A stretch of DNA of 64,000 bases from a virus, in IMG/VR virus record IMGVR_UViG_3300034389_000010, positions 33,935 through 97,934 of that record, one strand, 5' to 3'. The notes beneath the pieces are model-generated. The model saw only the letters and a list, made by a program, of their open reading frames with translations. It did not search any database and was not told where the DNA came from. Positions 5,969 through 60,428 of this stretch are shown piece by piece; the first letter of the stretch is position 1, and each line of letters begins with the position of its first letter. A program made the translations under genes and the position numbers.

Positions 5969-6009
5969 GGAAAGTCCCGAAAATGGGGTGTCCGTCACGC
6001 TTTTATCGT
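5969..6009 (+). promoter_or_regulatory. Putative late promoter GGAAAG-N29-TATCGT
   Basis: One of 8 copies with identical spacing; precedes the capsid gene. Confidence 0.7.
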
Positions 6010-6064
6010 TGAAGCCAGCCCGCCCAGCCGTGGGCGACTCATTTCAGCGAGAGACGGACACCCT

Positions 6065-7729: not shown

Positions 7730-7740
7730 GGGGGTAGATC

Positions 7741-8717: not shown

Positions 8718-8730
8718 AGGGGCTCTATTC

Positions 8731-10353
8731 ATGACTCAAATCGCATTCATCCGAGGCGCGCCGGTGGCGCGTTCGGCTGTCCAGCTGCAGTACCTGCGCG
8801 ACAACACCGGTCGCGGCGTGGTGACCGACAGCGACCAGGTGGTGGCCACCCTCGGCCGCTTCGAGCGCGGCCCGATCGATCGTGCTTTCGACGTCGATTC
8901 GAGCAACCGCACCCGTCGCCTGGGCGCCTCTGGATCCCTGCTGGCCAGCGCGCTCAACGAGCCGCACCTGCAGGCCTATGAAATGCTCGACCGTGGCGCC
9001 GCTGCCCTGGTCGTCTCGCGCCTGGTGCCGGCCGCTGCCGTCAACAAGTACCTGATCGCCACCCAGGATGCGGCCACCAAGGCCATCACCTGGAGCACCG
9101 CCGCCGCCCTGCCCGCTGACTTCCTGGTCGCCATCAAGCACCTGGAATGCTTCAACGATGGCGTGCGCGTGTCGATCAACGCCGTGGCCGCACTGGCTGC
9201 CGATGGCGTCACCGCCGCCGACGCCACCGTGATCAAGCTGCGCCTGATCGACATCGCCACCGGCGATGCGCTGTTCGACGACTTCGTGGGTTCGCTGGTG
9301 GCCACCGCCAAGGACGAGTTCGGCCAGTCCTATTTCCTGCCGTCGCGCGTCTCCAGCCTGACCGACCTGGTCGAAGTGACCGTCAAGGGCACCAGCGTGG
9401 GCGCCGCCTCGAACGCCTACGGCGTGGACGCGAGCGAAGCCGACAAGTGGGTCACCGCCGACCTCAACTACTTCTCCGAGGGCGGCACCACCTACGCGAT
9501 GACCGACTACGACGCGGCGATCAGCCGGCTGTTCCACAGCAACGTCACCTTCGGCTACCTGCACGCCGGCGGTACCGCCAACGTCGCCTTGATCGGCAAG
9601 CTCGGCACCCTGGCCAAGCGCATGAACAAGAAGTGGGCCTTCGACGTGCCCAGCAGCCTGACCACCGTCGCGGCCGCTGTCGCCTTCATGGCGAACCTGG
9701 GCCTGGACGACCACTACGCCGACGCCTACTGGGCGCCACTGGTCTGCGATGATCCGCTCAACGGCGGCAAGGCCTCCTGGGGCGCCTCCGGCGTGAACCT
9801 GGGCCTGCGCTGCCAGCGCAACGCACAGACCAACGGTGACGGCGTCGCACCCAAGCACTTCGCCGTGGCTGGCTCCGACTGGAGCCTTGGCCGTACCGGC
9901 GTGCGCCAGCTGCTGAACTTCGAAGACACCGATATGGAGAAGTTGGCCAAGGCCAAGATCAACCTGGTGGCCTACGAAAACTACGCCAGCGGCGGCAAGT
10001 ACGCCTTCCTCGACTCGCTGACCTGCTCCAAGAGCAGCGGCGACAAGCAGCTGTCCACCGTCTCGGAAATGGCCACCGCCGTGGATGACGCGGTGACCCG
10101 CTACGCCAAGGAATGCCTGCAGAAGCCGATCGACGTGGCGATCGCCAACCTGACCACCTACCTCGAACAGCTGTTCAAGGCGCTACAGCGCGCCGGCTGG
10201 CTGGTGGCTTCCGACGCCCTCAAGGGCGCCGCCTGGCGTTTCAGCGTGACCCCCAACAGCGCCAGCCCCAAGCAAAAGATCGACGTCAGCTACGACCTGA
10301 GCTACCAGGGCACCGCGCGCGTCATCACCGTTGCTCAGACCCTGAGCAAGTAA
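8731..10353 (+). CDS. Contractile tail sheath protein (P1 gp22-like)
   Basis: 540 aa; N-terminal GRFERGPIDRAF; C-terminal sheath-like helices and strand; position after capsid. Confidence 0.8.
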   Translation: MTQIAFIRGAPVARSAVQLQYLRDNTGRGVVTDSDQVVATLGRFERGPIDRAFDVDSSNRTRRLGASGSLLASALNEPHLQAYEMLDRGAAALVVSRLVPAAAVNKYLIATQDAATKAITWSTAAALPADFLVAIKHLECFNDGVRVSINAVAALAADGVTAADATVIKLRLIDIATGDALFDDFVGSLVATAKDEFGQSYFLPSRVSSLTDLVEVTVKGTSVGAASNAYGVDASEADKWVTADLNYFSEGGTTYAMTDYDAAISRLFHSNVTFGYLHAGGTANVALIGKLGTLAKRMNKKWAFDVPSSLTTVAAAVAFMANLGLDDHYADAYWAPLVCDDPLNGGKASWGASGVNLGLRCQRNAQTNGDGVAPKHFAVAGSDWSLGRTGVRQLLNFEDTDMEKLAKAKINLVAYENYASGGKYAFLDSLTCSKSSGDKQLSTVSEMATAVDDAVTRYAKECLQKPIDVAIANLTTYLEQLFKALQRAGWLVASDALKGAAWRFSVTPNSASPKQKIDVSYDLSYQGTARVITVAQTLSK

Positions 10354-10362
10354 GGAGCCCTC

Positions 10363-11262
10363 ATGATCGATTACCGCATGATGCTGCACGACATCCGTTC
10401 CAAGGGGGTGGCGCCGCAAGGCGCCACCCTGGACGCGGTCAAGCCTGCAGCCACTCCGGAGGTGCCCGAGGTGCCCCTGGCTGAGCCGGTCGTTACCGAG
10501 CCTGTGACGACCCTGGACAACGCGGCCGAGCCGACCCCTACCGAGCCCACGCCGGCGGCTGATCCTGCTGCTGGCGCCCCCGCAGGCGATCCTGCGCCGG
10601 TGCTGGATGGTGTCGTGGTCGAGCCCGAGCCTGCGCCTACCCCGGAAGGCAAGCCGATCTATGACGCGGCCGGTACCGCCCTGTTCGTCGATGACGTGGT
10701 CGGCACCGATCTGGACATCACCGCCGCCGCCATCGTCCAGGAGTGGGCGGAAACCCTGCCCGAGGATCTGGACGACGGCGAAGGCCCGGCCGACCGCCTG
10801 CTGGCCCTGATGATCGGCGCCATGCCCGAGGACGAGTTCCCGGACGTGATCAGCGACGATGCGGCCGACGACCTGATGGACCTGGGCGACGCCGTGGGCG
10901 ACGTGCTGGCCGACCTGGGCGTGGCCGATGAGGACCTGGACATCCTGCTCAACGACTTCGACAACGATGTCGGCGAGCGCGTCCAGGAGCTGATCGCCGG
11001 CAGCCTCGCCGAGGGCGCAGATCCTGTGACCTTCGTGCTGGGCGATGGCAGCGATGAACCGGCCTTCGACGCCGTCTACCGCCGCCGCATCGCGGTCCGT
11101 GGTGGCAAGAAGGTGCGCATCAACAAGCGCGTCTCCGGTCGCGTGGTGCTGTCCGGCGCGCAAAAGGCATCGGTACGCAAGATGCAGCTCAAGGCCCGCA
11201 CCAGCATGGCCAAGCTGCGCCGCGCCAAGTCGATGCGTGTCCGCCAGCGGATGGGCCTGTAA
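10363..11262 (+). CDS. P1 gp21-like morphogenesis protein (acidic body, very basic C-terminus)
   Basis: Follows sheath as in P1 23-22-21; C-terminus VRGGKKVRINKR...LSGAQKASVRKM..RRAKSMRVR. Confidence 0.6.
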   Translation: MIDYRMMLHDIRSKGVAPQGATLDAVKPAATPEVPEVPLAEPVVTEPVTTLDNAAEPTPTEPTPAADPAAGAPAGDPAPVLDGVVVEPEPAPTPEGKPIYDAAGTALFVDDVVGTDLDITAAAIVQEWAETLPEDLDDGEGPADRLLALMIGAMPEDEFPDVISDDAADDLMDLGDAVGDVLADLGVADEDLDILLNDFDNDVGERVQELIAGSLAEGADPVTFVLGDGSDEPAFDAVYRRRIAVRGGKKVRINKRVSGRVVLSGAQKASVRKMQLKARTSMAKLRRAKSMRVRQRMGL

Positions 11263-11265
11263 GCC

Positions 11266-12198
11266 ATGAGCGTCTTTGACGGACTGAGTTCGACACTGTC
11301 GAGCGCCGCCAAAGGCGCAGGCTCGGTGCTTTCGGGCGCCACCAGTGGCCTGGTACATGACATCGGCGGCGAGGTCCTGGGATCTGTCGGGGACTCCGGC
11401 AGCATCCTGGGCACCCTTGCCGGCGCCCTGGGCGGGGTGTTCGACACCTTCGGCGCCCGCCAGACCTGGGGCCGCCTCAATCCCAAGTTGCTCGCCCAGC
11501 TCTACGCCTGCGACAAGGAGGGCAACATGGTCGAAACCGGCTATGTGGCCGGTCCGATCAGCGACGACAACATGGAGATTGGCCTCAACTGGCAGAGCCC
11601 GTTCGAGAACTCGGGTCCCGAGACCAAGGTGCCCTCGATCATGGCGCTGCTGCAGAGCGGCCAGGCGGCCACGGTGATCAACGCCCTGCAGGTGTCCGGC
11701 GTGCTCGGTACCAGCGAGGAGCTGAACACCATCGCCGACAACGCCAAGAAAGCAGCCGCTGCCTTGGAAGGCCGCACCGGCATCACCAAGGTGAACAGCC
11801 GGCAGGTATTTTCGGGCATGCCGCCGATCAAGGTGTCGATGACCCTGCACATGCGGGCGCTGGTGGATGCGCAGCGCGAGCTGATGGAGCAGTACAACCG
11901 CCTGCTGTCCTGGTCCCTGCCCCAGCAGCTGGCCGAGGACAGCTACCTGACCGGCATCATCCGCCAGGGTGGTGACGTGACGGAAATGGTCAAGGCGCTG
12001 TTCCCCTCCGAGGCGCCGCGCATGGTGTCGTTCCACTACGGGCCGCTGGCCTTTCCGCCCATGGTCATCGAGCACGTCGGCCACCCGCTGAGCGCGCCGC
12101 AGAACAAGGACGGCAACTGGATCCAGCTACCGGTGCAGATCACCCTGGCGACGCTCACAGCGATGGACCGGCAGGACCTGGTCTATTTCTTCCGCTGA
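11266..12198 (+). CDS. Putative tail tube initiator / baseplate-tube junction protein
   Basis: 310 aa; NWQSPFE and tube-fold-like beta pattern; tail gene context. Confidence 0.5.
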   Translation: MSVFDGLSSTLSSAAKGAGSVLSGATSGLVHDIGGEVLGSVGDSGSILGTLAGALGGVFDTFGARQTWGRLNPKLLAQLYACDKEGNMVETGYVAGPISDDNMEIGLNWQSPFENSGPETKVPSIMALLQSGQAATVINALQVSGVLGTSEELNTIADNAKKAAAALEGRTGITKVNSRQVFSGMPPIKVSMTLHMRALVDAQRELMEQYNRLLSWSLPQQLAEDSYLTGIIRQGGDVTEMVKALFPSEAPRMVSFHYGPLAFPPMVIEHVGHPLSAPQNKDGNWIQLPVQITLATLTAMDRQDLVYFFR

Positions 12199-12208
12199 TC
12201 GAAAGCTA

Positions 12209-12238
12209 CGACGCCGGCACCTGAGCGGGCCGGCGTCG
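12209..12238. terminator. Hairpin between convergent genes
   Basis: CGACGCCGGC-N10-GCCGGCGTCG 10-bp stem. Confidence 0.5.
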
Positions 12239-12247
12239 CTGGCATCT

Positions 12248-13228
12248 CTACTTGAACGCCTTTCCCGCCACCGAGGTGCGTAGGTGCCGCCACAGTGGAC
12301 GTTCCAGGATGAAATGGAAGGCAACAGCCAGCGCCAGCGCGAGGCCAAAGACCAGCAAGAACTGCCACCCCTTCTCCAGGTGCAAAGGCTCGGTGAGCCA
12401 TATCATCGGGAAATGAAACACAAATAGTCCGTAAGACGTAGCCCCTGCGTATTGCTGCAATGTGTGCATTGCCGGTGAAAGTCTGGCTTTGCTGGTCAGC
12501 AGGATCAGGGGAATGCCCAGTAAGATACCGGCGCTTACTTCCAAGTCAGGCACTTGCCGCGTCCCTGTGATTAGCAGTGCTGCCACATGCAGCAATGCCA
12601 GCACGCAGATGGCAGCCAGTAGGCATCTGCTCGCGAGTGTTCGCCGCTCTATCAAAACGCCGATCATGAATACAAAAAGCACACCAAAAAGCAGTCGGTA
12701 TCCATACCAATCGGCATGCAGCACGCCAATATGCGCGCAAATAAATACGACGAAACTTCCCGCTGCACACAGCGCCCCTACCCTGGGGTATGTGAGAAGC
12801 AGAGGCATGATCAGATAGAACTGCAATTCGGCCCCTAGCGACCATGCCGGCGGTATCAGCGTGAATCTATCAATACCGTTATACATATAGTAGTTAAGAG
12901 GTACGATGGTCAGATTGCCTAGCCATGACGCTATGTTGCTGGCCTCTGATAGGTAGTAAGACTTTGCACCTGATAGCCAAATCCCTGTCGCCACCAGTAG
13001 TGCAGCAAAATAAAGTGGATATATCCTTAATAGCCTGTCGGTATAAAACCACTTTATAGATGGTAGCAGGTCAGCGTGGGGGCGTTTCGCCCACAACTTC
13101 GTTACTACATGACCAGCCAGCATATAGAAAATTATGACTGCCCATACCCCGACGTTGTAACCCAGCGGCTCAATGCCTACATGGCTGACCACCACCAGGG
13201 TGGCGAGAAGAAAACGTAGAAACCCCAT
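12248..13228 (-). CDS. Acyltransferase-3 (OafA/Oac-like) membrane O-acetyltransferase moron
   Basis: Start MGFLRFLLATLVVVSH; R..RIYP, PPAWSLGAELQFY and SYGLFVFHFP motifs; multi-TM; low GC; opposite strand. Confidence 0.85.
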   Translation of the reverse strand: MGFLRFLLATLVVVSHVGIEPLGYNVGVWAVIIFYMLAGHVVTKLWAKRPHADLLPSIKWFYTDRLLRIYPLYFAALLVATGIWLSGAKSYYLSEASNIASWLGNLTIVPLNYYMYNGIDRFTLIPPAWSLGAELQFYLIMPLLLTYPRVGALCAAGSFVVFICAHIGVLHADWYGYRLLFGVLFVFMIGVLIERRTLASRCLLAAICVLALLHVAALLITGTRQVPDLEVSAGILLGIPLILLTSKARLSPAMHTLQQYAGATSYGLFVFHFPMIWLTEPLHLEKGWQFLLVFGLALALAVAFHFILERPLWRHLRTSVAGKAFK

Positions 13229-13310
13229 TTCGTTGCAGTGCCTTGTCCTAAAGGCGCGAATACTAACGTGGCACAGCCTTGCCTGTACCAAATGAGGCTG
13301 TGTTCCTTTC

Positions 13311-13351
13311 GGAAAGTCTCCCCGAGAGGCCCCAGGCCTGCGCCCCACACT
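13311..13351 (+). promoter_or_regulatory. Putative late promoter GGAAAG-N29-CACACT
   Basis: Conserved motif and spacing; restarts the tail operon after the moron. Confidence 0.7.
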
Positions 13352-13380
13352 CTGCCCATTACTCGCATTGGGAGAGCCCC

Positions 13381-13854
13381 ATGACTGTATCCACCGAGGC
13401 CTACATGGCCCAAATGATCAACGAAACCCTCGCCCTGGGCGACAAGACCCTCAGTTCCGACGCGCACTTCGTGATCGACGGTTTCGAGAACCTGACCGTG
13501 CTGGCCAAGCAGTTTCCCTGGCCCGTGCTGACCCCCGAGGGCGAGATCGAAACCCCCGCCCCCATGGGCATCAAGATCGGCCAGCCGCAGCAGATCAATG
13601 CGTTCCAGCGCAGCCCGATCGCCTTCATGGAAACCCGCGCGGGCCACATCGAAAAGATGATCCGCGAGATCAACGAGAAGGGCGGCCGCTTCAATGCCCG
13701 GATCTACGAAGGCACCCGCGAAAACCCGCTGCGCACCGCGCGGATCTTCAACTGCTGGGTGCAGATGGAGCCGATCGATCGCGACATCGAGAACCGCGCG
13801 CAGATCGTGCTGTGGTCCGGCACCCTCTTCTACCACTACACCGGCGAGGCCTAA
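13381..13854 (+). CDS. Tail tube protein (P1 BplB-like)
   Basis: ATG 13381 with GGGAG RBS; 157 aa, KQFPWP, ends SGTLFYHY; tube-like size. Confidence 0.6.
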   Translation: MTVSTEAYMAQMINETLALGDKTLSSDAHFVIDGFENLTVLAKQFPWPVLTPEGEIETPAPMGIKIGQPQQINAFQRSPIAFMETRAGHIEKMIREINEKGGRFNARIYEGTRENPLRTARIFNCWVQMEPIDRDIENRAQIVLWSGTLFYHYTGEA

Positions 13855-13857
13855 GCC

Positions 13858-14403
13858 ATGCGCTGCTCGGTGCTGCTGGCCAGTTACGTCGCCGTCCGCC
13901 CGCTCGGCATCATCCTTGAGGATGACCAGCTGGCGCGCAGCCTGAAACGGTCCATCCGGTTCTATTGCGGCTATGCCACGCTGACCCATGCGCCGAGCGC
14001 CTTCGAGATCCTGCTGCAGGACGCCGAGGCGGCGCGCATCGCGGCCGAGCGCCAGCAGATCGACCTGCTGGGTATCGGCGGCGTGCTCACGCCCTGGGAA
14101 CGCGCCGCGCTGCCGAAGGTGCCGCTGTACGCCCCGCGCGGGGTGGACGTGCATTCCCCGGTCGATGCCAGCAACGGCTTCATCGGCGACCAGGACTTCG
14201 ACCTGACGCCGAGCGAATACGCACTGATCTGGCCGCTGTTCGAGCTGTATGTGGAGTTGGAGAACGCCGAGGCCCTGGAAGCCTCGCGCGCCAGCGGCAT
14301 GGACGGCTGGGGCCGCAGCACCGACACCATCCGCGCCGAGATCGAGCAGACCGAGGAGCGGATGAGCAAGGCCGCCTTCGAGTTCGAGTGCATCACCCTA
14401 TGA
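13858..14403 (+). CDS. Putative head-tail connector / neck protein
   Basis: 181 aa helical protein in the structural operon. Confidence 0.45.
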   Translation: MRCSVLLASYVAVRPLGIILEDDQLARSLKRSIRFYCGYATLTHAPSAFEILLQDAEAARIAAERQQIDLLGIGGVLTPWERAALPKVPLYAPRGVDVHSPVDASNGFIGDQDFDLTPSEYALIWPLFELYVELENAEALEASRASGMDGWGRSTDTIRAEIEQTEERMSKAAFEFECITL

Positions 14404-15074
14404 GCGTGTTCGATCGCATCGCCAACCAGGTCGGACAGAACTACCTGTCCGCCCTGGGCCAGGCCTCCCCGCTGATCAAGTTCGGTACCGACCTGCTGAG
14501 CCAAAAGCTCACCAGCCGGGTCAAGCTCGGCAAGCGGGCGCTATTCGGCGGCCTGTCGGAGAGCAACTGGCGCGGGATGATCGAGGACTTCATTTCGATC
14601 GACCGCAGCAAGGCCAACCTCTTCCACTTCAACGCCACCAACCTGCAGACCGGCACCGCGCCGGATCTGAATATGTTCGTGATCGGCTTCCAGGCCTCGC
14701 CCATGACGGTGCGCGGCGAGTCGGTACCGATCGGCGCCAGCTTCTACGACAAGGTCGAGGGGATGGACGCCGTCCAGCTGCGCGTCACCACCATGGACGA
14801 CGCCGGCGGCTCGGTGAAGACCTGGTTCAAGAACATGCACCGGGCGATGGCCCCCGGCGACGGCACGGTCGGCATGCCGCTGTCCTACCTGGTCCGGATC
14901 ACCATCACCCACGCCTTCCCCAGCCAGAAGTCGGACGGCGCCGGCGGCGCCTTCGTCGATAGCTGGGTCATGCGCCCCGGCTCGATCGAGTACGAGGGCG
15001 ATCGCCGCAATGACGGCCTGCAGGAGCTGCAGCTGTCGTTCGTTCAATTCGACGGTTTTTCCAACCTGATCTAG
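14400..15074 (+). CDS. Tail tube-fold protein (P1 PmgG-like)
   Basis: ATGA overlap start at 14400; ends ELQLSFVQF, tube-like. Confidence 0.5.
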   Translation: MSVFDRIANQVGQNYLSALGQASPLIKFGTDLLSQKLTSRVKLGKRALFGGLSESNWRGMIEDFISIDRSKANLFHFNATNLQTGTAPDLNMFVIGFQASPMTVRGESVPIGASFYDKVEGMDAVQLRVTTMDDAGGSVKTWFKNMHRAMAPGDGTVGMPLSYLVRITITHAFPSQKSDGAGGAFVDSWVMRPGSIEYEGDRRNDGLQELQLSFVQFDGFSNLI

Positions 15075-15081
15075 GTGGTTC

Positions 15082-15867
15082 ATGCGCCATATCGCCCCGT
15101 ACCGCACGCCCCGCATCGGCGTGGATCTCAAAGAGCTGACCTTGGGCGCCGCCATCGTGCTGACCGCCCGGCCCTTTACCACCTACGAGGCCAACCAGGG
15201 CGCGTGCCTGGCGGCGATCGTGGAGCGCCACGAGGATCGGGATGGCCAGGTGACCGATCTGCGTCTGTGGACCGTCCAGGAGCGGCACGCGGTGATCTCG
15301 CACTACCTGGCGCACACCTTCGACAGCTTCGACTTCCCGGTCGGCGAGAATGCCCGCTTCTCGAACTACCTGCTGATGGAGCGGCCCATGGCCGAGCCGG
15401 TCGCGCTGGGGCCGATCGCCGATGACGAGTGGACCCTGCTGCCGCTGCTGGGCCTCTACGCCGAGTCGATCGAGCGCCTGATGGCCCAGCAGCGCATCCC
15501 CGCAAAGCGCCACGGCTGGGTGATCGCCTGCATGGCCGCGCAGATGCGTTCCACCGACGCCCGCGAGTCCGAGTTCCTGGCCAAGTGCAACCTGCCCAAT
15601 GCCGCGCACCAGGACCTGCCCGAGGCCCTGGTGGACGACTGGCTGGAGCGCCGCGTGCAGATGCTGCTCAACACCGCCGAAAGCGACTTCGCCGACCTGA
15701 TGGGCGCCTACCTTGCCGGCTTCGAGCAGCAACAGCACCTGGTGCGCATGGCGCATCACGACGATGGCCTGGTACTGGTCGGGGAGGCGCCGGGGCTGCC
15801 CCCGGCCCGATTTCCAGTTTCCGACCTGTTTGGACGCCAAACGCAACGACTTCTTGGTATCGCTTGA
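15082..15867 (+). CDS. Putative baseplate hub assembly chaperone
   Basis: 261 aa; WTVQER motif; tail operon context. Confidence 0.45.
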   Translation: MRHIAPYRTPRIGVDLKELTLGAAIVLTARPFTTYEANQGACLAAIVERHEDRDGQVTDLRLWTVQERHAVISHYLAHTFDSFDFPVGENARFSNYLLMERPMAEPVALGPIADDEWTLLPLLGLYAESIERLMAQQRIPAKRHGWVIACMAAQMRSTDARESEFLAKCNLPNAAHQDLPEALVDDWLERRVQMLLNTAESDFADLMGAYLAGFEQQQHLVRMAHHDDGLVLVGEAPGLPPARFPVSDLFGRQTQRLLGIA

Positions 15868-16087
15868 GAACCGGCGCAACGAGCTGATGCTGCACTTCGG
15901 CCAGCCCTTCGGCCACGCCGGCCAGATCCCGCTGAGCGCGGCCGATCGCATGATCGAGTCCAAGGCCTTCGAGCTGTGGCGCAAGATGGACGAGAACAAG
16001 GACGAGCTGATGATTCACCTGATGAAGCGGGTGGACACCGTCACCAAGGCCGTCGTCAGCCTGGGCAATGCCCTGGCCAGCCGGTAG
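15810..16087 (+). CDS. Overlapping +1-frame ORF, possible frameshift extension or small tail assembly protein (start uncertain; in-frame ATG at 15887)
   Basis: Phage-like codon usage in the +1 frame after about 15810; weak RBS. Confidence 0.45.
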
Positions 16088-16101
16088 CGCTTAGCGCAAT
16101 C

Positions 16102-16142
16102 GGAAAGCCCCCGGTGGGGCGCTGCTCCGGCGCCCCCACACT
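16102..16142 (+). promoter_or_regulatory. Putative late promoter GGAAAG-N29-CACACT
   Basis: Conserved motif; precedes the lysis cassette. Confidence 0.7.
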
Positions 16143-16171
16143 CTGGCCATCACCTGACGCCGGAGTCTTCC

Positions 16172-16486
16172 ATGACCCCCAACACTCACACCCGCCTCAA
16201 GTCCCTGTTCGACAAGGGTGCCTGGCTGCTCATGCTGCCCGCTGCCCTGCTGCTGTTCTTCATCGACCCCGCCATGCTCCTGACCATCCTGCAGTGGCTG
16301 CTGGTGGGCCTGGTCATCGCCGGCGTGACCATCATCGTCAGCCGCATCATGTTCCCGCAGGTCAGCATGCCCTGGCTGGTGGCCGAGATCGCCAAGGGCA
16401 ACATAGCCGCAGGCCTCACGGCCGCCGCGCTGATCCTGTTCGTGGGCATCATCTTCCTGGGGCTGGTGCTATGGGCCAAAGCATGA
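16172..16486 (+). CDS. Putative holin
   Basis: 104 aa with about 3 TM segments, directly upstream of the endolysin. Confidence 0.7.
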   Translation: MTPNTHTRLKSLFDKGAWLLMLPAALLLFFIDPAMLLTILQWLLVGLVIAGVTIIVSRIMFPQVSMPWLVAEIAKGNIAAGLTAAALILFVGIIFLGLVLWAKA

Positions 16487-17247
16487 CGGGCGTGGGCGCT
16501 GGCAGCGCCCTGGTACGCGGCCTGCTCGCCCTGCTGGTGGCCATCTTCCTCGCCGCCATGGTGGCGATCGGCCTGACCCTGCCGGGCTCGGCCTTCGCCG
16601 CCGAGGTGCCGGCCGCCGCCAAGCCGCTGCTGCCGATCCTGGCGCAGCAGCAGCGCACCACCTGGCCGGACCTGGTGGCGCCCGAGTTCCTGGCCGGGCA
16701 GATCGAGCAGGAGTCCTGCCTGTCGCTGACCCACTCCAAGTGCTGGAACCCGCGCGCCGAGCTGAAAACCAAGCGCGAGAACGGCATCGGCCTGGGCCAG
16801 TTCACCCGCGCCTATAGGGCTGATGGCTCGATCCGCTTCGACAAGATCGGCGAGCTGGCGGCCGCCTACCCCTCCCTCAAGGGCTGGGGCTGGGCGAACC
16901 GCTACGACGCCCGGTACCAGCTGACCGCCCTGGTGGAAATGGATCACGGCCTGTACCGCCAGGTGCGCGACGCGGCGACCGAGCGCGATCGCAAGGCCTT
17001 CACCCTGTCGGGCTACAACGGCGGCGCCGGCGGCGTGCTGCAGGACCGGCGCCTGTGCGGAAACACCCGAGGCTGTGACCCTGGGCGCTGGGCGGGCCAC
17101 GTCGAGCGCACCAGCCTCAAGTCCCGCGTGCCGGTACCGGGCTACAAGCAGTCCTTTTTCGCGATCAATCGCGAGTACGTCCACAACATCCTGGACGTGC
17201 GCAGCGCTAAGTACCGCGCCTATTTCGTGGAGCCTCCCCATGGGTGA
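16483..17247 (+). CDS. Endolysin, lytic transglycosylase (SLT-like) with N-terminal signal/anchor
   Basis: ATGA start 16483; QIEQES catalytic Glu, GLGQF, YNGG; hydrophobic N-terminus ending AFA. Confidence 0.85.
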   Translation: MTGVGAGSALVRGLLALLVAIFLAAMVAIGLTLPGSAFAAEVPAAAKPLLPILAQQQRTTWPDLVAPEFLAGQIEQESCLSLTHSKCWNPRAELKTKRENGIGLGQFTRAYRADGSIRFDKIGELAAAYPSLKGWGWANRYDARYQLTALVEMDHGLYRQVRDAATERDRKAFTLSGYNGGAGGVLQDRRLCGNTRGCDPGRWAGHVERTSLKSRVPVPGYKQSFFAINREYVHNILDVRSAKYRAYFVEPPHG

Positions 17248-17452
17248 TGACAACAAGATCCCCGAGGTTCGTTTGGCGCTGCTGGAGCATCGCCTGGGGA
17301 AAATTGAGGAAGACATCAAGGGACTGCCAGAGAAATTCGCCTCGATAAAGGAATTTCTGATCGTCCGAAACCTGGTGTTCACCGGGGTCGGGTCCGTTCT
17401 TCTGTCCGTCCTGGGCGGCCTGCTCGCCCTGGTGAAGAGTCTCCCATCATGA
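17240..17452 (+). CDS. Small coiled-coil + C-terminal TM protein (holin/XhlA-like)
   Basis: 70 aa MGDDNKIPEVRL...; single C-terminal TM. Confidence 0.55.
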   Translation: MGDDNKIPEVRLALLEHRLGKIEEDIKGLPEKFASIKEFLIVRNLVFTGVGSVLLSVLGGLLALVKSLPS

Positions 17453-17922
17453 AAAACCTACTCAACAAGCACGTTCCGCCCCACATTTTCTGGCCGTCCT
17501 TTCTGCTGCTGATCTTTGGCGGCATGGCGGGCGCGATCCTGAGCATCATGGTGGTGGGCAGTAATCCGTTCCAGGTGACGAACCTGGGCACGATCAACGT
17601 CGCCGGCGAGGCGCAGACCCAGTTCCATCCCGGCGACGTCGTGGTGGTCCGCCGGCAGGTCTGCACCGACAAGGGCGTCACCCTGACGTTCTATCCGGGG
17701 ATGCGCAGCGGCCAGGGCGTGCTGTTCGCGCTGCCCGTGGGCGCCTCCCGCTTCGCCCAGGGCTGTCGCGAGACGCTGTATGGCTTCGTGCTGCCCGCGC
17801 AGATCCTGCCCGGCACCTACACCTACCAGAACCTGGTCCAGTACCAGACCAACTGGATCGGCCGGGATGAGGCAAACGTCTACCCGCCCCTGACCTTCGA
17901 GGTGGTGGCCAATGATCACTGA
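17449..17922 (+). CDS. N-terminally anchored periplasmic protein in the lysis cassette
   Basis: One TM then a beta-rich domain with 2 Cys. Confidence 0.55.
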   Translation: MKNLLNKHVPPHIFWPSFLLLIFGGMAGAILSIMVVGSNPFQVTNLGTINVAGEAQTQFHPGDVVVVRRQVCTDKGVTLTFYPGMRSGQGVLFALPVGASRFAQGCRETLYGFVLPAQILPGTYTYQNLVQYQTNWIGRDEANVYPPLTFEVVANDH

Positions 17923-18325
17923 CACCCTGATGAAACCCCTGTACGTCGCCCTCGCCCTGCTGGCGGCGCTGGGCTTCGGCGTCGGGACCTACGTCGTGGT
18001 CGGCTGGCAGATGGAGAACACCTATCTGCACCAGCTCAACGACAGCAAGACCACCATCATCAACCAGAACACCAGCATTCTGACCCTAACGCAGAATCAG
18101 ACGACACTGCAGGCGGCGATCCAGCGGCAGAATCAGGCGGTGGAGCTGGCCGAGGAGCGCACCCGGCACGCCGAGCAGCAGCAGGCCCTGGCCAAGGCGG
18201 CGCTGGCCAGCCAGGCCAAGCAGAGCGATGCACGCATTGTCGGCCTGCAGAAGGATCTGGCGAACGTCCAGGTGACGCTGGCCACCCTGCTGCGCAAGAA
18301 CTGGGAGGCGAGCCGCCATGAGTGA
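17912..18325 (+). CDS. i-spanin (Rz-like)
   Basis: N-terminal TM plus long coiled coil, upstream of a lipoprotein. Confidence 0.7.
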   Translation: MITDTLMKPLYVALALLAALGFGVGTYVVVGWQMENTYLHQLNDSKTTIINQNTSILTLTQNQTTLQAAIQRQNQAVELAEERTRHAEQQQALAKAALASQAKQSDARIVGLQKDLANVQVTLATLLRKNWEASRHE

Positions 18326-18641
18326 TCTTGCGAAGTTGTTGCTGCTGTTCCTGTTCGTGCTGGCGCTGTCGGCCTGCGGATCCTCGCCCACGGCCCCGCT
18401 GGTGCCCAAGATCGAGACGGTCGAGGTCAAGGTGCCGGTTTCCACGCCGTGCATCGTCGAGGCCCCCGCCCGGCCGTTGTACGCCTGGGGCAAGGGCGAC
18501 TATCCAGGCGACAAGGCCGCCGTGGGCATCCTGCTGATCGACCATGAGCGGTCCGTGCAGTACGGCAAGGCCTGGGAGGCGGCCAGCACGGGGTGCGTCC
18601 GGAGCGTTTCGGAAAGTGCCAGCGTAACGCCATCACCCTGA
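18318..18641 (+). CDS. o-spanin lipoprotein (Rz1-like)
   Basis: Lipobox LSAC, Pro-rich, VEVKVPV..PC. Confidence 0.75.
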   Translation: MSDLAKLLLLFLFVLALSACGSSPTAPLVPKIETVEVKVPVSTPCIVEAPARPLYAWGKGDYPGDKAAVGILLIDHERSVQYGKAWEAASTGCVRSVSESASVTPSP

Positions 18642-26005: not shown

Positions 26006-26665
26006 ATGGGCCAAATCATCATCATCGGCGGCAACAAAGGCGGCAGCGCCAAGACCGCTACCTGCATCCAGCTAGCCGTCCAGCTCGCCCACATTGGCGC
26101 TGACTTCCTGGTCGTGAACGCCGACCCGCAGAAGTCGATGGCCAACTTCGTGCGCTATCGCCAGCAGCATGGCGTGACCCCGGCCATTCCCTTGGCCGAG
26201 GCCTACGGTGACATCTCCACCCAGCTGCATACGCATGCCAAGAAGTACGACATCGTGCTGGTGGACGTTGCCGGCCGTAACAGCGCCGAGCTGGTCACCG
26301 GCCTGCTGGTGGCTGATCAGGTCATCGCGCCGCATCAATCCACCCAGGTGGATCTCGATACGCTGGAAGAGCTGGCCACCCAGGTCCGTGTGGCCCGGAT
26401 GCGCGGTAATAACCCGGATCTGCGCGCTCGCGCATACCAGACCATCACCAGCACCCATCGCCACAAGGGGCCGATCGAGCGTCAGGAGTTCCTGACCTTT
26501 GTGAAAGAGTTTCCCGAGTTGGAAGCCATGGAGTCAGCGAGTAACTACCGGTCCGTCTACCGTTCGAGCTTTGGCGAGGGCAAGGGTGTGACCGAGTGCG
26601 ACGACGAGAAAGCAGCGGCCGAAGCGGTCGCTCTGTTCAATGAGGTATTTCCCCAATGGTCATGA
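26006..26665 (+). CDS. parA: ParA partition ATPase (type Ib, no N-terminal HTH)
   Basis: Deviant Walker A KGGSAKT, ADPQ, VLVDVAG. Confidence 0.9.
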   Translation: MGQIIIIGGNKGGSAKTATCIQLAVQLAHIGADFLVVNADPQKSMANFVRYRQQHGVTPAIPLAEAYGDISTQLHTHAKKYDIVLVDVAGRNSAELVTGLLVADQVIAPHQSTQVDLDTLEELATQVRVARMRGNNPDLRARAYQTITSTHRHKGPIERQEFLTFVKEFPELEAMESASNYRSVYRSSFGEGKGVTECDDEKAAAEAVALFNEVFPQWS

Positions 26666-32722: not shown

Positions 32723-33714
32723 GCGGACTTCCGTTCGGCATAGGCCAGGATCTCGTTGATCTGCGAGGCGGGCAGCTTGCCGAAGTCATCCACCTTGAAG
32801 TGCTGCAGCAGATCCTCATTGCTGACCTGATGGATCGCGGTCCGGCTCTTGATCAGTCTGATCTGGACCTCGCTCACGCGCGCACCTTCGGTGTCGGCGG
32901 CTGGCGCCTGGGCTGGGGCCTTCTTGCGGCTGTTCGGCTTCTTGGCCGGCTGCTCGTCGGCGACCTGATACTCGCCTTCGATCGGCGCCTGGGCGTCGCC
33001 CTTCTCCAGCGGCTGCGGGCCGTTGGCCTTGCGGTCGTCGGGGGCTGGGGTCACGTCCCGCTCATCCAGGACAATCTCCTTGCCTTCCATTTCCTCGGCA
33101 GTCGGGCCGGCATCGATCTCTGGCCAGGCCTTGCGCAGGGCCTGCGCCTCGGCGCACTTCGCCAGCTGGCCATGCGGGCGTTTCTTCCACATGGCGTTCG
33201 GCTCCTCAGTCCAGCCGCCTGCCGTCGCGTAGTTCTCTTTCCAGAACTCTTTCACGGTGAAGGCGCAGCGCTGGCCGCCGACGATCTTGTAGACGGTGAC
33301 CTTGCACCAGAGCGGATAGGTCAGGGTGCAGGTGCGATCCGCGTGCTGCCTGCCGTAGCTGTCGGTATTGCCCGGCGTGGTGAAGGTTTCCGTCTGCTCA
33401 GGCCCGAACTCGGGTTCATCGGCGCCGGCATAGCTGCCTGAGCGGGCGGCCTGGATGCGGTACAGGCCAATGCCAGGCATGACTTGGTCGCGCTTGACGG
33501 TGGCGCTCCCGATCTTGATCTGCATCGGCACGATGTGAACCGGCTTCTGCAAGACGTCCAGGCCGCGCGCCTGGCAGTAATCGATCGCTGCGATAACGGA
33601 GTCAGGATGGGCGCCCGGAAAAACCGAGGTCGTCAGGGTGTTCCAGATGGCCTGGGAGACGCTGCGTTCTACCAGTGCGGGGTTCTTCTGTTGCCAGGGG
33701 GTGAGGGTCGTCAT
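32719..33714 (-). CDS. bet: Bet/RecT-family single-strand annealing recombinase
   Basis: YC.ARGLD..QKPVHIVP, GIGLYRIQA.RSG, MWKKRP.GQLAKCAEAQALRKAWP. Confidence 0.9.
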   Translation of the reverse strand: MTTLTPWQQKNPALVERSVSQAIWNTLTTSVFPGAHPDSVIAAIDYCQARGLDVLQKPVHIVPMQIKIGSATVKRDQVMPGIGLYRIQAARSGSYAGADEPEFGPEQTETFTTPGNTDSYGRQHADRTCTLTYPLWCKVTVYKIVGGQRCAFTVKEFWKENYATAGGWTEEPNAMWKKRPHGQLAKCAEAQALRKAWPEIDAGPTAEEMEGKEIVLDERDVTPAPDDRKANGPQPLEKGDAQAPIEGEYQVADEQPAKKPNSRKKAPAQAPAADTEGARVSEVQIRLIKSRTAIHQVSNEDLLQHFKVDDFGKLPASQINEILAYAERKSA

Positions 33715-34006
33715 GTTCGTCTCTGGTGCTGCTGTGCCCAACAAAAAGGTATCTCCTGATTCCAAATAACGCAACTAAATAATCGTATTTGATTCCGATT
33801 TTTGGATATGCCATGCTTTGGCCATCGCAACGATCAGCGTCAGTGATAGGGATCGCCTCCCTGTGCAAGCAGTGGGCCATTGCTAGAATTGCCGGTGATC
33901 GGCGCGCCGGAATACACTCCACCCAATACGGGTGCTTTCGGTTCCCGTTATCAGGAGCCAAAAACGGCGTATTCCACTGAGTCACTACGATGACGAGTCA
34001 CAAGAA

Positions 34007-34390
34007 ATGAGCGACGAAACAGCAGATCGCCAGGAAATGCGCGAGCAGCGAAAGCAGCGCCCAGGCCTGGTGGCCTTGCGCGAATACCTGAAAAAAATGA
34101 AGAAGGCCGAGCGCGAGAAATTCGCGGAGAGGTGCAAGACCACCACCGGCCACCTCAAGCAGGTAGCGCTGGCAGGCCGGCTGATTCAGCCGTGGCTTGC
34201 TATCAATCTGGACAGGGAAAGTGGGGGTGTACTGAATTTTGAGGAGCTGGTGGACGACGCGGACGACGATCGGGCGATCGATTGGGAGTACGTCATGGCG
34301 CGCAAGCAGCTACGAATGGGAAACAAGATCCCGGACCTCTATCGCAAGCAGATCAAGCTAGAACTCCTACAGGAGATAGCGAAAGACTGA
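34007..34390 (+). CDS. Cro/YdaS-like HTH regulator
   Basis: LREYLK...FAERC.TT.GHLKQV...LAI.LDRESGG; first gene of the divergent operon. Confidence 0.7.
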   Translation: MSDETADRQEMREQRKQRPGLVALREYLKKMKKAEREKFAERCKTTTGHLKQVALAGRLIQPWLAINLDRESGGVLNFEELVDDADDDRAIDWEYVMARKQLRMGNKIPDLYRKQIKLELLQEIAKD

Positions 34391-34393
34391 GCG

Positions 34394-34669
34394 ATGGCCA
34401 CCAGCCAGAAAGCGAGAGTTCTAGCGGTTTTAGCGGCTTCCGACGTGCCTTTGGCGCTGTTCGAGATCCGCGACAAAATTGAGGCACAGTTCATGCAATT
34501 GGACTCGGACGCAGCAATTAGCGCCCGTATTCGAGATATAAGGCATGAGCTTGAGATTGAAAGCTGTGGTACGGTTGGGAGAGTACCGGTACCTGGTCGC
34601 TCCTGGTGTCGATACCAGCTCGTCCGCAATGGCAGCACACAGAGTACGACGTTCGCCGCTGACGCATAG
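34394..34669 (+). CDS. Small winged-helix protein
   Basis: 91 aa; AAISARIRDIR. Confidence 0.55.
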   Translation: MATSQKARVLAVLAASDVPLALFEIRDKIEAQFMQLDSDAAISARIRDIRHELEIESCGTVGRVPVPGRSWCRYQLVRNGSTQSTTFAADA

Positions 34670-34676
34670 TGGCAAC

Positions 34677-34826
34677 CGGATGGATAGGTGGGGAGTAGCT
34701 ACCCCGCCGAGAAGGCCTAAACACCCCCGTGCATGGGGCCTTCCATCCGTTTCTAACGGGGGTGAAACCGGTGGCCTGCCTTGGGGAGCCACCACCAGAA
34801 AATTCATGCACGGGGAAACGCATGAA
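34677..34826 (+). promoter_or_regulatory. Structured RNA leader with alternative pairings upstream of the replication genes
   Basis: Several complementary segments, detailed in findings. Confidence 0.5.
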
Positions 34827-35097
34827 CACTAAAAATAGGGCCAAACGGCTCAGGGCACCCCTTTGCCTGAAAAAAGAGGGACAGGACAAAAGCAAGTCGT
34901 TTGCATGTGACGCAGTTGGCACACAGCATGTGACGCAATCCGTCAGCACAATGCAAACGACTTGCATAGATGGTCTTTTATCCAGTGGTGGCGATCGGAA
35001 CGCGGAGCCTTGCGAAGGTTCCTGGTTGGCGCAGCTGAGACTTGCCTATCATGCCAACAGCATCGCTCTGAAAGGTTACGCGGAGGTTTCCGCGTGA
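34822..35097 (+). CDS. Putative leader ORF translationally coupled to the rep gene
   Basis: GGGGA RBS; its TGA overlaps the rep GTG (GTGA). Confidence 0.4.
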   Translation: MNTKNRAKRLRAPLCLKKEGQDKSKSFACDAVGTQHVTQSVSTMQTTCIDGLLSSGGDRNAEPCEGSWLAQLRLAYHANSIALKGYAEVSA

Positions 35098-36080
35098 GTA
35101 TTCGCCGTGCCCCACGCCCCGACACGGGGTTCTACATTCTCGATCGCAAGATCGCAGAGGACGAGCGAATGTCCTGGGCGGCGCGCGGGATGCTGATCTT
35201 TCTGCTCAGCAAGCCGGACAACTGGGAAGTGTCGGTCAAGCACCTCATCAACCAGACGAAAAACGCAGTGGGCAAAAGCTCATCGCGCGACGCCGTGCGG
35301 GTGATTCTCAAGGAGCTGGAAACAATCGGCTACCTGCAGATCGACCAGGCGCGGCAGTCCACTGGCCGGTTTGAAGGCATCGCCTACATCGTTCACGAGT
35401 CGCCGGTACCGGCCAAACTTTGTGACGCAGTTCCGGGGCCGGAAAATCCGGCTGCGGAGGATAATTCACCGGAGACGGATTTTCCGGCGCCGGTGGCTCC
35501 GGCGTCGGCCAAACCGGCAGCGGAAAATCCTGACCTAATAAGTATTGAAAAAACAAAGAGAAACCAGGAAGAGCACCAAGATTCTTGTCCGCCTATCGAC
35601 GGACCCGTATCGGCTGACGACTACTCGAAATTGGCTAAGCCGATTCAGGCCCGCCTGATCGAGTCGGTGTTCGCTCACTGGCAGACCACCATGAAATCCC
35701 CCCGCGCTCGCCTCGACGAGAAGCGGCGCAAGATCCTGCACAAGGCCCTGGGCGAATACGGCCTGCAGGACGTGCTCAACGCCATCACCGGTTGCTCGCG
35801 CTCGCACTATCACATGGGGCGTAACGAAGACGGTTCGCCGAAGCCAGGCGCGACGAAGTACAACGACGTCGAACTGATCTTCCGCGAGGCGTCGAAGACT
35901 GAGCGGTTCCTGGGTTTCTTCGATGAGCCGCAGGCGTACACCCGCCAGGTGGAGCGACCTGAAAGCCAGGCCGGCAAGTTCGACGCTCGGGTGTTCATGC
36001 AGCACAAAACGCAAATGGGAGGCGGCTATGGCTCAGGTTTTGACGATCACATCGATGGTCACGCCCAGCGTCTGGACTGA
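35094..36080 (+). CDS. Replication initiator (lambdoid O-like, N-terminal wHTH)
   Basis: GTG with GGAGG; D.RMSW.ARG.L..LLSKPDNW; internal iterons. Confidence 0.75.
   Translation: MSIRRAPRPDTGFYILDRKIAEDERMSWAARGMLIFLLSKPDNWEVSVKHLINQTKNAVGKSSSRDAVRVILKELETIGYLQIDQARQSTGRFEGIAYIVHESPVPAKLCDAVPGPENPAAEDNSPETDFPAPVAPASAKPAAENPDLISIEKTKRNQEEHQDSCPPIDGPVSADDYSKLAKPIQARLIESVFAHWQTTMKSPRARLDEKRRKILHKALGEYGLQDVLNAITGCSRSHYHMGRNEDGSPKPGATKYNDVELIFREASKTERFLGFFDEPQAYTRQVERPESQAGKFDARVFMQHKTQMGGGYGSGFDDHIDGHAQRLD
35403..35560. repeat. Iteron-like 15-bp repeats CCGGnnnCGGnnnnn (7 copies) plus A-rich tract: putative origin
   Basis: Copies at 35403, 35433, 35448, 35469, 35484, 35499 and 35514, then TAATAAGTATTGAAAAAACAAAG. 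Confidence 0.65.
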
Positions 36081-36801
36081 CCCCCGACCGCAAGCTGATG
36101 GCAGCACCAAGCCGGGCATCCTGGACGAGCTGTGGAACCGGTTTGACGGCCGCTGGATGGATGCCTGGTCGCGCAAGTTCCCGAACCCGGCCGCGATCGA
36201 GAACTGGAAGCTGACGCTGTCCGAGGATCTGGCCGCCGAGCGCATCACCGGCAAGGAGTTCGCGCGGGGCTGCGAGGCCCTTCGTACCTGCAAGTTTCCG
36301 CCCAATCCGGCCGAGTTCATCATGCTCTGCCGGCCGACGCTTGACCCCTATGTCGCCTACCAGGAGGCGATGACCGAAATGCCCAAGCGGCACTTCCCGG
36401 CGGTCAAGGAGGGGAAGCTGGTGAGCGAGGATCAGTGGTCAGAGCCCGCGATCTTTTGGGCCGCCGCGCGCATGTGGCACGACCTGCAGCACTGCTCCTG
36501 GAAGCAGATCCAGGCCCGCTGGGAGCGAGAGCTGGCCAAGGCTCGGAAAGAGCATCTGACCATGCCTCCGAAAGCGACGCATGCTATCGAGCACAAGCCC
36601 GAGCCCACGATCAAGCCGGACGAGCAGCGACGCATGATCGCCGACATGATCGGCCAGCTGAATGTCCGCAAGCCGCCCAAGCCAGTTCGCGAGGGTGGTC
36701 CGGAGCTGGATCGGGACCTTGAGGAGCGCAAGCGTCGCGCCGAGGCCGAGGTCCAGCTGGCGATGATGCAGCGCGCAAAGAGAAAAACCGAGGGCGCATA
36801 A
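36028..36801 (+). CDS. Lambda P-like helicase loader
   Basis: W...F....ENW..L..., FPPNPAEFI.LC, W..PAIFWAA; follows the O-like gene. Confidence 0.65.
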   Translation: MAQVLTITSMVTPSVWTDPRPQADGSTKPGILDELWNRFDGRWMDAWSRKFPNPAAIENWKLTLSEDLAAERITGKEFARGCEALRTCKFPPNPAEFIMLCRPTLDPYVAYQEAMTEMPKRHFPAVKEGKLVSEDQWSEPAIFWAAARMWHDLQHCSWKQIQARWERELAKARKEHLTMPPKATHAIEHKPEPTIKPDEQRRMIADMIGQLNVRKPPKPVREGGPELDRDLEERKRRAEAEVQLAMMQRAKRKTEGA

Positions 36802-41379: not shown

Positions 41380-41990
41380 TGTACCCCGAGCCGGGCGGGC
41401 CGCGATGCGGATGCCCCGGACAGCCAGGGTGTGGAGAGCGCTGATTGCAAAGATCCCACACAACCGACACAGGCGAGATTACTCCTCGCGCCCATACGAC
41501 CCTGCAGGCCTCAACCCTGCTAAGTGGGCAAGCCTGGGAATCGGTCGATCGCCCCGCGTGAAGGGGCATGAACAGCAGGACCTCGATCGCCGGCAATGGC
41601 CTGGCGCTCGTGAAGCCGATCCGGCGCCCCGACGCTTAACCGCTCCAGGGGCAAGAGCCAGGATCGCCGGGAGTGGCAACCGGCCCGAGTCATCCACGGA
41701 TGGCATCGGCAAGGTCGGCCGAGGCTATAGCCTCACGTTTTGGGGAGGCCGACCTTGACCAATGCCAGTTCGATGCGGGAGGCGTGGTAGATCGCCGATG
41801 CGTGAGAGCAGTGAAGGGCACCCCTCGCCCAGGCTCACGCTGAAATCTACAAGCCGGGTTGGGGGAGGTTACCCCCCGCGTTTGGCCCTCCGGAGGAGTT
41901 CACCGCGCCTTGGCGATAGGCGGTGCCGATAGCCCGAAAGGGCTGCATCGGAGAGTGCGCCCAACCGCGCACTGCCCCATGCAGCCACCC
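41380..41990 (+). ncRNA. About 600-nt highly structured non-coding region
   Basis: No credible ORF; consecutive and multibranch stems. Confidence 0.5.
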
Positions 41991-59933: not shown

Positions 59934-60428
59934 ATGCCAAGCCACCGCAGGAGACCGCCCTTGTCCGTTGACGCCTATATCGCCACCGAGCGCCGCCAGA
60001 TCGAGGGCATGACCCTTGCCGATGCGGCGCGCTACTGCTGCAAGGAGGGCATGAGCAAGGCGCAGGCCTGCCAGGTGATGCAGATCCATCACGAGCACCT
60101 GCAGAGCGTCCTGGCCGGCATGGAGCGGCTGTATTGGCCGAGCCATGGCAAGTCCAATGCCTACCGCGACGCCCAGGACCGGCAGCGCCACGTCTGCACC
60201 CCCGCCCAGGCCGAAAGCCTCGCCCGCGCCCGCAAGCAGCGCCTGGCCGACCAGGTTTACACGGTCCGAGGTGTTACCGCCTCGCTGCCCGAGCTGTACA
60301 AGCGCTTTGAATGCCCCTGCAGCCTGCGCCAGGTCCAGCGGCGTGTCGCCGAGGGCATGGGCGCCGAGGAGGCCCTATTCACCCCCACCACCCGGAGTAA
60401 CCAGCACCGCTCTACCCGTACCGCCTAG
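59934..60428 (+). CDS. Putative DNA-binding protein
   Basis: C-terminal YTVRG...SL.EL...V.RR...GM..EEAL..P. Confidence 0.55.
   Translation: MPSHRRRPPLSVDAYIATERRQIEGMTLADAARYCCKEGMSKAQACQVMQIHHEHLQSVLAGMERLYWPSHGKSNAYRDAQDRQRHVCTPAQAESLARARKQRLADQVYTVRGVTASLPELYKRFECPCSLRQVQRRVAEGMGAEEALFTPTTRSNQHRSTRTA

Follow-up and report, generated by a model that had tools for sequence, protein, structure and literature searches.

A predicted int-alpA-type leader RNA and a coupled leader reading frame ahead of a lambda-type replication initiator in a Pseudomonas phage

The DNA analyzed here, referred to as the window, is a stretch of 64,000 nucleotides from a virus (IMG/VR record IMGVR_UViG_3300034389_000010, positions 33,935 to 97,934), and our subject is the leader at window positions 34,677 to 35,097, which lies directly ahead of rep, a gene for an O-like replication initiator. 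Its most likely function, and in our judgment a probable one, is that of a translational throttle of Rep that works through a small leader open reading frame (ORF). We propose that the rep transcript carries a three-way-junction leader of the int-alpA type (Rfam RF02996) and that the 19-nt loop of the third stem of this junction, P3, would act as a private anti-ribosome-binding-site sequence. The loop would pair either with a decoy just behind the junction (34756-64) or, more stably, with a second box that takes in the leader ribosome-binding site and the 5' arm of a hairpin at that place. As long as the loop holds box 2 the leader ORF would remain untranslated. Ribosomes that finish the leader ORF would open a hairpin over the rep start, restart at a GUGA overlap and be the main source of Rep, because the rep ribosome-binding site and GUG are buried in the hairpin and the leader stop overlaps the GUG. 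In such a scheme the competition between loop, decoy and ribosome-binding site would set the amount of Rep per transcript through the share of leaders that can be translated, by termination and reinitiation. The original prediction, made from the letters of the window, had seen in this region an RNA switch with a coupled leader ORF, and as far as sequences can tell it was largely right.

The junction was found by direct reading and by a repeat search, and it spans 34676-34749 on the plus strand, the strand of all the leader features described here. P1 is formed by CGGAUGGA (CGGATGG(A), 34677..34684) and UCCAUCCG ((T)CCATCCG, 34742..34749). The strand J1/2, UA (34685..34686), leads from P1 to P2, which is the hairpin GGUGGGG-AGUAGCUA-CCCCGCC (34687..34708, arms 34687-93 and 34702-08) with 7 bp, one of them a U.G pair, and an 8-nt loop. 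J2/3, GAGAA (34709..34713), leads on to P3 (34714..34740), in which a GGCC/GGCC stem closes a 19-nt pyrimidine-rich specificity loop (34718-34736); the arms of P3 can be extended to (AA)GGCC (34712-17) with GGCC(TT) (34737-42). The 3' arm of P1 is followed by a pyrimidine spacer, UUUCUA (34750-55). All the pairings that had been predicted are present, both on reading the sequence and in the repeat search. The predicted junction stands as well, with its stem sizes corrected to 8 bp for P1 and to 4-6 bp with a 19-nt loop for P3. By itself the junction folds as drawn, at about -37 kcal/mol, in the window and in two relatives, L001 and L037, in which the 5' arm of P1 is the same. The RNA fold of 34670-35110 gave z = -4.3 against 100 shuffles.

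The P3 loop has two alternative partners downstream. Loop bases CACCCCCGT (34722-30) pair with ACGGGGGTG (34756-64) at 9/9 positions, and loop bases CCCCGTGCATG (34725-35) pair with CATGCACGGGG (34805-15) at 11/11. The first partner is box 1, the decoy (ACGGGGGUG, 34756..34764), and its 9 bp with the loop are worth -19.7 kcal/mol; the second is box 2 (CAUGCACGGGG, 34805..34815), and its 11 bp, worth -24.2 kcal/mol, cover the leader ribosome-binding site. Between the boxes there is a spacer hairpin, GGUGGC...GCCACC (34770..34793, -13.4 kcal/mol). The leader start has a hairpin of its own, UUCAUGC-N10-GCAUGAA (34803..34826, arms 34803-09 and 34820-26, -7.1 kcal/mol), with the ribosome-binding site, GGGGA, in its loop and the AUG at 34822 in its 3' arm. 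The prediction that box 2 covers the Shine-Dalgarno sequence of ATG 34822 is confirmed, and the further statement that this sequence otherwise lies in the hairpin needs to be amended since it is the loop that holds it and not the stem. In the window, L001 and L037 the loop:decoy pairing is worth -18 to -21 kcal/mol and the loop:box 2 pairing -25 to -26 kcal/mol; the hairpin that the latter displaces is worth -7 kcal/mol. In the minimum-energy fold of the full leader the loop strand pairs with box 2 in 3/3 window-type sequences, and we infer that this pairing would block translation of the leader ORF. Since the two boxes overlap on the loop (34722-30 and 34725-35), each would leave a free toehold for the other. 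A long-range pairing between 34788-34802 and 34978-34992 was dropped because it is absent from L001.

Conservation of the pairings in relatives had been set beforehand as a test of the prediction, and it was found that they are kept by compensatory change. L001 is the locus of CP018759.1, a record filed as a plasmid. When the window is compared with L001, 34661-34713 and 34741-55 are nearly identical (0-7% different) whereas divergence is 47-56% in the P3 loop (47%), in box 1 and in the spacer hairpin, with complementarity fully kept. In L001 the P3 stem is GCCC/GGGC in place of GGCC/GGCC, the loop is replaced by CUCUCCUGGCAUGA, box 1 by CCAGGAGAG and box 2 by CAUGCCAGGAG, and all pairings are maintained; the spacer hairpin has a new sequence and still pairs. 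A further variant came from contigs of a public run compared with the window (run X6), in which a different loop again has a matching box 1. The changes in run X6 number 33 within 34613-34851 as compared to 14 in 773 flanking bases. L037, a metagenome locus, retains the loop and the boxes of the window although its downstream gene differs, and a hairpin of different sequence from that of the window is kept in the place of the spacer hairpin in both L001 and L037. Changes in the loop are accompanied by changes in box 1 in both L001 and run X6, and by changes in box 2 in L001. The claim of one loop with two alternative partners, one of them on the leader ribosome-binding site, is thus supported by covariation.

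Judged from its structure and its relatives, the junction is a divergent int-alpA-type leader RNA. With the window included, the family collected here has 13 loci. The 22-nt P2 hairpin recurs unchanged in eleven of the 12 others, which come from viral and metagenome collections, and in the twelfth, L099, the loop is kept and the stem covaries; P1 and P3 of the other family loci differ from those of the window. J1/2 is invariant across the family members and the Rfam int-alpA consensus, and the family consensus of J2/3 is GAAAA. Taken together, the junction strands are UA, GAAAA/GAAGA and CU in the short-type relatives, UA, GAGAA and UU in the window, and UA, GAAAA-G and CU in the Rfam consensus. 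With the Rfam model three relatives score 20.1, 29.4 and 32.3 bits, the gathering threshold being 35.8. A model for which the nine short-type relatives alone were used finds 34675-34752 of the window, at full length, with 49 bits and an E value of 3e-13, and this is the sole copy in the window. The equivalent of P1 covaries in the short-type relatives: 91% of cells are paired as against 43-61% in slid controls, 5 pairs are changed on both sides, and 1/500 shuffles reaches the score. Almost all members have two boxes downstream that match the P3 loop, and the second box abuts the start codon of the next gene; in L003 this second box is weak. Of the 40,320 permutations in which 8 loop specificities can be assigned to tails, the true one alone scores best. 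The int-alpA consensus itself has a loop CCUU and a downstream tail AAGGG. Features common to the window RNA and int-alpA are the three-way junction, the junction strands, a P3 loop rich in pyrimidines, a U/C-rich tail behind P1, a downstream purine box and occurrence in phages. They differ in that P2 of the window has a greater length (7 bp, 8-nt loop) and a sequence that does not vary, its P3 loop has 19 nt and not about 9 nt, and the boxes of the window, of 9 and 11 bp, lie 7 and 56 nt behind the junction with an extra hairpin between them and are directed at a leader ORF coupled to rep. This locus stands out by its target, a leader ORF coupled to an initiator, by the long loop, the 9 + 11 bp of complementarity and the extra hairpin between the boxes, and by a host element that is probably a plasmid-like phage.

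The genes behind the cassette in the family are DUF1376-type replication genes, HNH-type genes, a regulator-like phage gene and another HTH-type rep. A search based on a Rep alignment gave 68 loci with the junction in 1/68 (L099), so that the RNA is independent of this Rep family, and a Rep-only query found no related loci in viral contigs. A scan of genome contigs in which the P2 loop was left free gave 29 chance matches, about the number expected from 18 fixed bases, and zero true relatives; L004, a viral contig, was also discarded as a chance match. The int-alpA motif, catalogued for bacteria and phages, is reportedly listed as a candidate small RNA in the 2017 survey of Weinberg et al. We found no functional study of the RNA motif in the literature, and the phrase 'int-alpA' in one paper refers to a gene order and not to the RNA. 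This locus and its relatives would give int-alpA a concrete hypothesis, that of an anti-ribosome-binding-site loop choosing between a decoy and the real site, and here the loop would be wired through a coupled leader ORF to a lambda-type initiator in an element that bears a ParA-like gene and has no integrase.

Three observations on the family RNA are recorded here. The P2 loop AGUAGCUA (34694-34701) is invariant even in L099, where the stem covaries, and includes the 6-nt palindrome UAGCUA, which could serve for kissing of two leaders or for binding of a conserved factor. In L002 a second int-alpA-type copy (5123-5189, minus strand, 32.3 bits) is on the same viral contig as the copy behind a cro-like gene. 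A -10-like hexamer precedes P1 in all family members inspected, ending 4-7 nt upstream of the first base of P1, at 34665-34670 in the window and at the equivalent sites in L002, L003, L038, L041, L043, L044 and L047. The hexamers are CATAGT (window), TATGAT, TATAAT, TAAGAT, TAAAAT, TAGGAT and TAGACT, with an extended TG in L002 and L003. This stretch is non-coding yet conserved in L001 and L037, and transcription may start at the foot of the junction.

The original prediction had related the locus to the plasmid systems tap/repA of R1 and repY/repZ of IncI/IncB. In the copy control of R1 (CopA/tap-repA) and of IncI1/IncB (Inc RNA/repY-repZ) the initiator is translated via a coupled leader ORF and RNA pairing takes place at the leader ribosome-binding region (PMC8053102). 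The window has sequence features that would fit such a dependence on a leader, namely, the GUGA overlap, the buried rep ribosome-binding site and the maintained leader frame, and loop-loop contacts of the pseudoknot type are possible. On the other hand, its Rep is O-like with a P-like loader and not RepA(IncFII) or RepZ, its regulator is sense-encoded, the cassette is common to phage genes not concerned with replication, and no promoter for a counter-transcript was seen, so the claim of kinship found no support. The minus-strand antisense RNA that was expected along with it found no support either: a consensus scan of 33500-35500, which may miss an unusual promoter, showed no promoter-like site on either strand, and minus strand 34827-34802 has a weak terminator-like hairpin only. 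An activator pseudoknot for rep was not identified in the window leader. Because the cassette precedes unrelated phage genes elsewhere, it is better described as a portable phage leader of the int-alpA type than as a plasmid copy-control module grafted onto a phage, as had been suggested.

Cis action is the default for the junction RNA, and that it also acts in trans may be considered a tentative possibility on the sequence evidence. Phages that live as plasmids are known to have sense-encoded regulator RNAs of this kind, namely, c4 of P1 and P7 (icd-ant), CI of P4 and CA of N15 (Rfam C4 family), which lie upstream of their targets on the same transcript. Their short loops match several sites, one of which takes in the ribosome-binding site of a small ORF on whose translation the following gene depends, and specificity differs between close relatives through co-change of loop and target. 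By analogy, these are the closest systems in logic. The window RNA is similarly sense-encoded and upstream of complementary sites that include a ribosome-binding site, but it has one loop with two downstream boxes and not two loops or flanking boxes, and the gene controlled would be a replication initiator and not an antirepressor. The Rfam C4 model gave zero matches in the region or in the window at E 10. The references for c4 are cited in PMC8546580 (refs 37-38).

If the RNA were a sense-encoded antisense regulator of the kind of c4, CI and CA and worked mostly in trans, leader RNA set free by termination, by processing or through decay of the mRNA would build up as gene dosage rises and bind to box 2, and also to box 1, on other rep transcripts. 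This would stop translation of the leader and of Rep and thereby determine copy number and immunity or incompatibility. In favor of such a role, the loop and boxes are hypervariable in a near-identical scaffold, as the comparison with L001 and the changes in run X6 given above demonstrate, and hypervariable loops in a constant scaffold are the pattern of trans-acting specificity determinants. As with c4 and CI, the regulator precedes its targets and shares their strand, and what it targets is where ribosomes bind to a leader ORF that is coupled to the downstream gene, an arrangement known from icd-ant. The -10-like hexamer that ends 4-7 nt ahead of P1 in the inspected members of the family, the ParA-like gene and the lack of an integrase also speak for this role. 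However, no convincing terminator was found after P1 (UUUCU only), there is no clear processing signal, and Rfam C4 is not matched. We therefore regard a mainly trans-acting RNA as unlikely. A more specific form of trans action, which we put forward as a speculation, is a gene-dosage sensor in which free leader RNA from each genome copy would titrate the leader ribosome-binding sites on all cognate rep transcripts. In a lambda-type replicon that lives as a plasmid, this would fix both copy number and incompatibility group. If this is the case, then a new incompatibility group would come about when one loop and two boxes change in concert, there would be a second class of sense-encoded antisense regulators that is structurally unrelated to c4 and CI, and the orphan int-alpA would have a function. 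Trans action in addition to cis action would also explain the copy number of the phage-plasmid and its compatibility with relatives, and would make the loop/box pair a naturally reprogrammable translational switch. If the RNA acts in cis only, it would be another example of a widespread phage device that keeps dose-sensitive proteins such as initiators and nucleases low.

The leader ORF of 91 codons (34822..35097) ends in a stop that overlaps the rep start as GUGA, and a 9-bp rep hairpin (35076..35097, -14.5 kcal/mol) encloses the GGAGG of rep, its GUG start and the leader stop. The original prediction had described this 91-aa ORF, the GTGA overlap and a GGAGG locked in a hairpin; all are present, and the overlap and the buried site are conserved in L001, where the hairpin is worth -13.9 kcal/mol. 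The leader ORF is open in the window, L001, L037 and two proteins called in other assemblies, P0103 and P0104 (93% and 81% identity). There are 1-6 stops in the other five frames and 3-6 in the other two plus-strand frames, and a leader frame that changed neutrally would have a probability of 0.13 of staying open in one relative at 30% divergence. Omega is 0.5-1.0 for the leader ORF vs 0.10-0.24 for rep and two upstream genes. The GC content at the three codon positions (GC1, GC2, GC3) is near 0.5 throughout, GC3 being 0.55 vs 0.58-0.85 in the neighbors (0.69-0.85 in 3/4 measured). From the open frame, the omega of 0.5-1.0 and the lack of a coding composition, it appears that the frame is selected and the peptide is not, which is the pattern expected of a coupling ORF. 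In L037 (3840-4440) the leader ORF runs in frame and without a stop into a different gene, of the HTH-HNH type, and similarity to the window stops near window 35050, so that this locus looks like a module exchange directly behind the leader cassette. Since the same start in L037 opens a frame fused to a different gene, AUG 34822 is very probably a real start, and the rule in the family that box 2 is on the ribosome-binding site marks it as such too. We infer from this arrangement that rep depends on translation of the leader.

It could be argued instead that the junction controls only the 91-aa ORF as a functional small protein and that Rep is translated independently from its own GGAGG and GUG. 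The ORF is indeed kept open, and the gene calls of two other assemblies include it. Its first 15 residues and an LLSSGG block further inside are conserved, and the rep ribosome-binding site is strong. But the omega of the ORF and its lack of coding composition are not those of its neighbors, it has no family in Pfam or PHROGs, and where it is conserved the third codon positions are conserved as well, a sign of constraint at the nucleotide level. The ribosome-binding site and start of rep lie, moreover, in a hairpin of -14 kcal/mol with a GUGA overlap. This explanation is improbable.

Several further features were noted within the leader ORF. A 40-nt block near its start (34829-34868) is almost invariant in 3 sequences, third codon positions included; GGCAC-N4-TTGC in this block has the form GG-N9-GC, one base short of the spacing of a sigma-54 promoter, and an Rfam algC match at 34831-34883 (21.3 bits; threshold 33.8) was treated as chance. 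A perfect 15-bp inverted repeat (34892-34906 and 34951-34965, -35.7 kcal/mol as RNA) is kept in L001 and L037 via two compensated positions, and it is not tied to the specificity of Rep because L037 has a different downstream gene. The sequence TGTGACGCA has 4 exact copies, all on the plus strand (34906-14, 34929-37, 35421-29 and 40613-21), where about 0.5 would be expected by chance. Two of them are 23 bp apart in the leader ORF and largely kept in L001 and L037, and one is just ahead of the candidate iterons in rep. It may be a protein-binding site.

Another explanation is that the junction and its pyrimidine tail form a terminator or a processive-antitermination element of the nut or put type between the early regulators and the replication genes, the matches of loop and boxes being secondary. 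The RNA follows a cro-like gene in L002, L038 and L043, a position comparable to that of nutR-tR1 after cro in lambda; the Rfam consensus has a U7 tract after P1, and there are two copies in L002. Nevertheless, the tail in this subfamily is short and mixed (UUUCU, UCCUUUU, UUCUGG), and both boxes are transcribed after it and so could have no effect on termination there. The rule that box 2 is on the ribosome-binding site would be left unexplained, and we consider such an element very improbable.

Pairs held by G.U on the plus strand are the U.G pair of P2, the G.U that C34705>T makes of a P2 pair in run X6, GGGGUGGGA in L039 and UCAGGGGG in L099, and pairing kept in this way favors a sense-strand RNA over DNA repeats. 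That the repeats are DNA sites, either operators or origin iterons, for a protein of differing specificity is therefore highly improbable, even though the region adjoins a replication gene, has DNA-type repeats nearby (TGTGACGCA three times and the 15-bp inverted repeat) and repeated sites can also co-vary with the specificity of a binding protein, because pairing is kept through G.U on the plus strand only, box 2 is always on the ribosome-binding site and ahead of unrelated genes, L037 keeps the loop and boxes of the window before a different gene, and a lambda-like origin with three iterons and an AT-rich stretch is already inside rep.

Some points weigh against a throttle of Rep through the leader ORF. 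The GGAGG of rep, at 7-nt spacing, offers ribosomes a good site that they might use independently of the leader whenever the hairpin breathes. The leader-start hairpin, with its stem invariant in 3 sequences, and the rep hairpin are both invariant in the available relatives, so there is no evidence from covariation for either. The window-type alignment consists of three DNA sequences (window, L001 and L037) and two protein-only relatives, and the Rfam int-alpA model reports no copy in the window even at E 10. The DNA-type signals in the leader, namely the 15-bp inverted repeat and TGTGACGCA, could account for part of the conservation. Finally, the sequence analysis pointed to no input that would shift the balance between decoy and ribosome-binding site.

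The proposed control of Rep translation through the leader has to be seen with the replicon that it would serve. The rep gene (35094..36080, plus strand, GTG start) matches PHROG 4707, 16167, 270 and 345 and has homologues, CP018759.1 annotates the same start, and the gene after rep matches a P-like loader in PHROGs, so that the O/P replicon of lambdoid type in the original prediction is upheld. A candidate lambda-like origin lies within rep at 35433-35565 and consists of three copies of a 17-bp sequence, CCGGNNNCGGAAAATCC (35433-49 plus, 35477-93 minus and 35514-30 plus), and an AT-rich stretch (35531-65), all of which fall in the low-GC linker of the O-like gene. As in lambda, an O-like initiator is followed by a P-like loader, and three 17-bp iterons and an AT-rich stretch are inside the initiator gene. 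We know of no structured anti-ribosome-binding-site leader or leader ORF before O in lambda, where the oop small RNA at the corresponding place is antisense to cII.

The rep locus is probably carried by a Pseudomonas phage of the plasmid-like kind. The source record of the window is a 97.9-kb virus record that is rated complete. In it a leftward module with a RecT-type annealing protein and SSB opposes a rightward operon that has, in order, a 152-aa gene, a 91-aa gene, the 425-nt leader region, the O-like initiator, the P-like loader and a Ref-like nuclease; the 152-aa gene, the first of the operon, has a weak match to a repressor PHROG. Neither a tyrosine integrase nor a ParB N-terminal domain was found in the 97.9-kb record, and a gene for a ParA-like ATPase (Pfam AAA_31) is at window 26012-26419 (G000 59946-60353). 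The closest public relative, CP018759.1, is syntenic and filed as a 114-kb circular plasmid of a Pseudomonas psychrotolerans isolate, with 81% identity to the window across 33900-36100. Because there is no integrase, there is a ParA-like gene and the syntenic record is filed as a circular plasmid, a plasmid-like, non-integrated lifestyle of the element is plausible. A gene series of about 13 kb is found at both ends of CP018759.1 (L048 and L049), where 5582-18393 recurs at 99824-112635. This terminal repetition is probably an untrimmed assembly overlap, which would put the true size near 100 kb and comparable to the 97.9-kb record of the window. Elsewhere in the window, 41385-41465 is a weak match to the Rfam Proteo-phage-1 RNA (26.5 bits; threshold 42).

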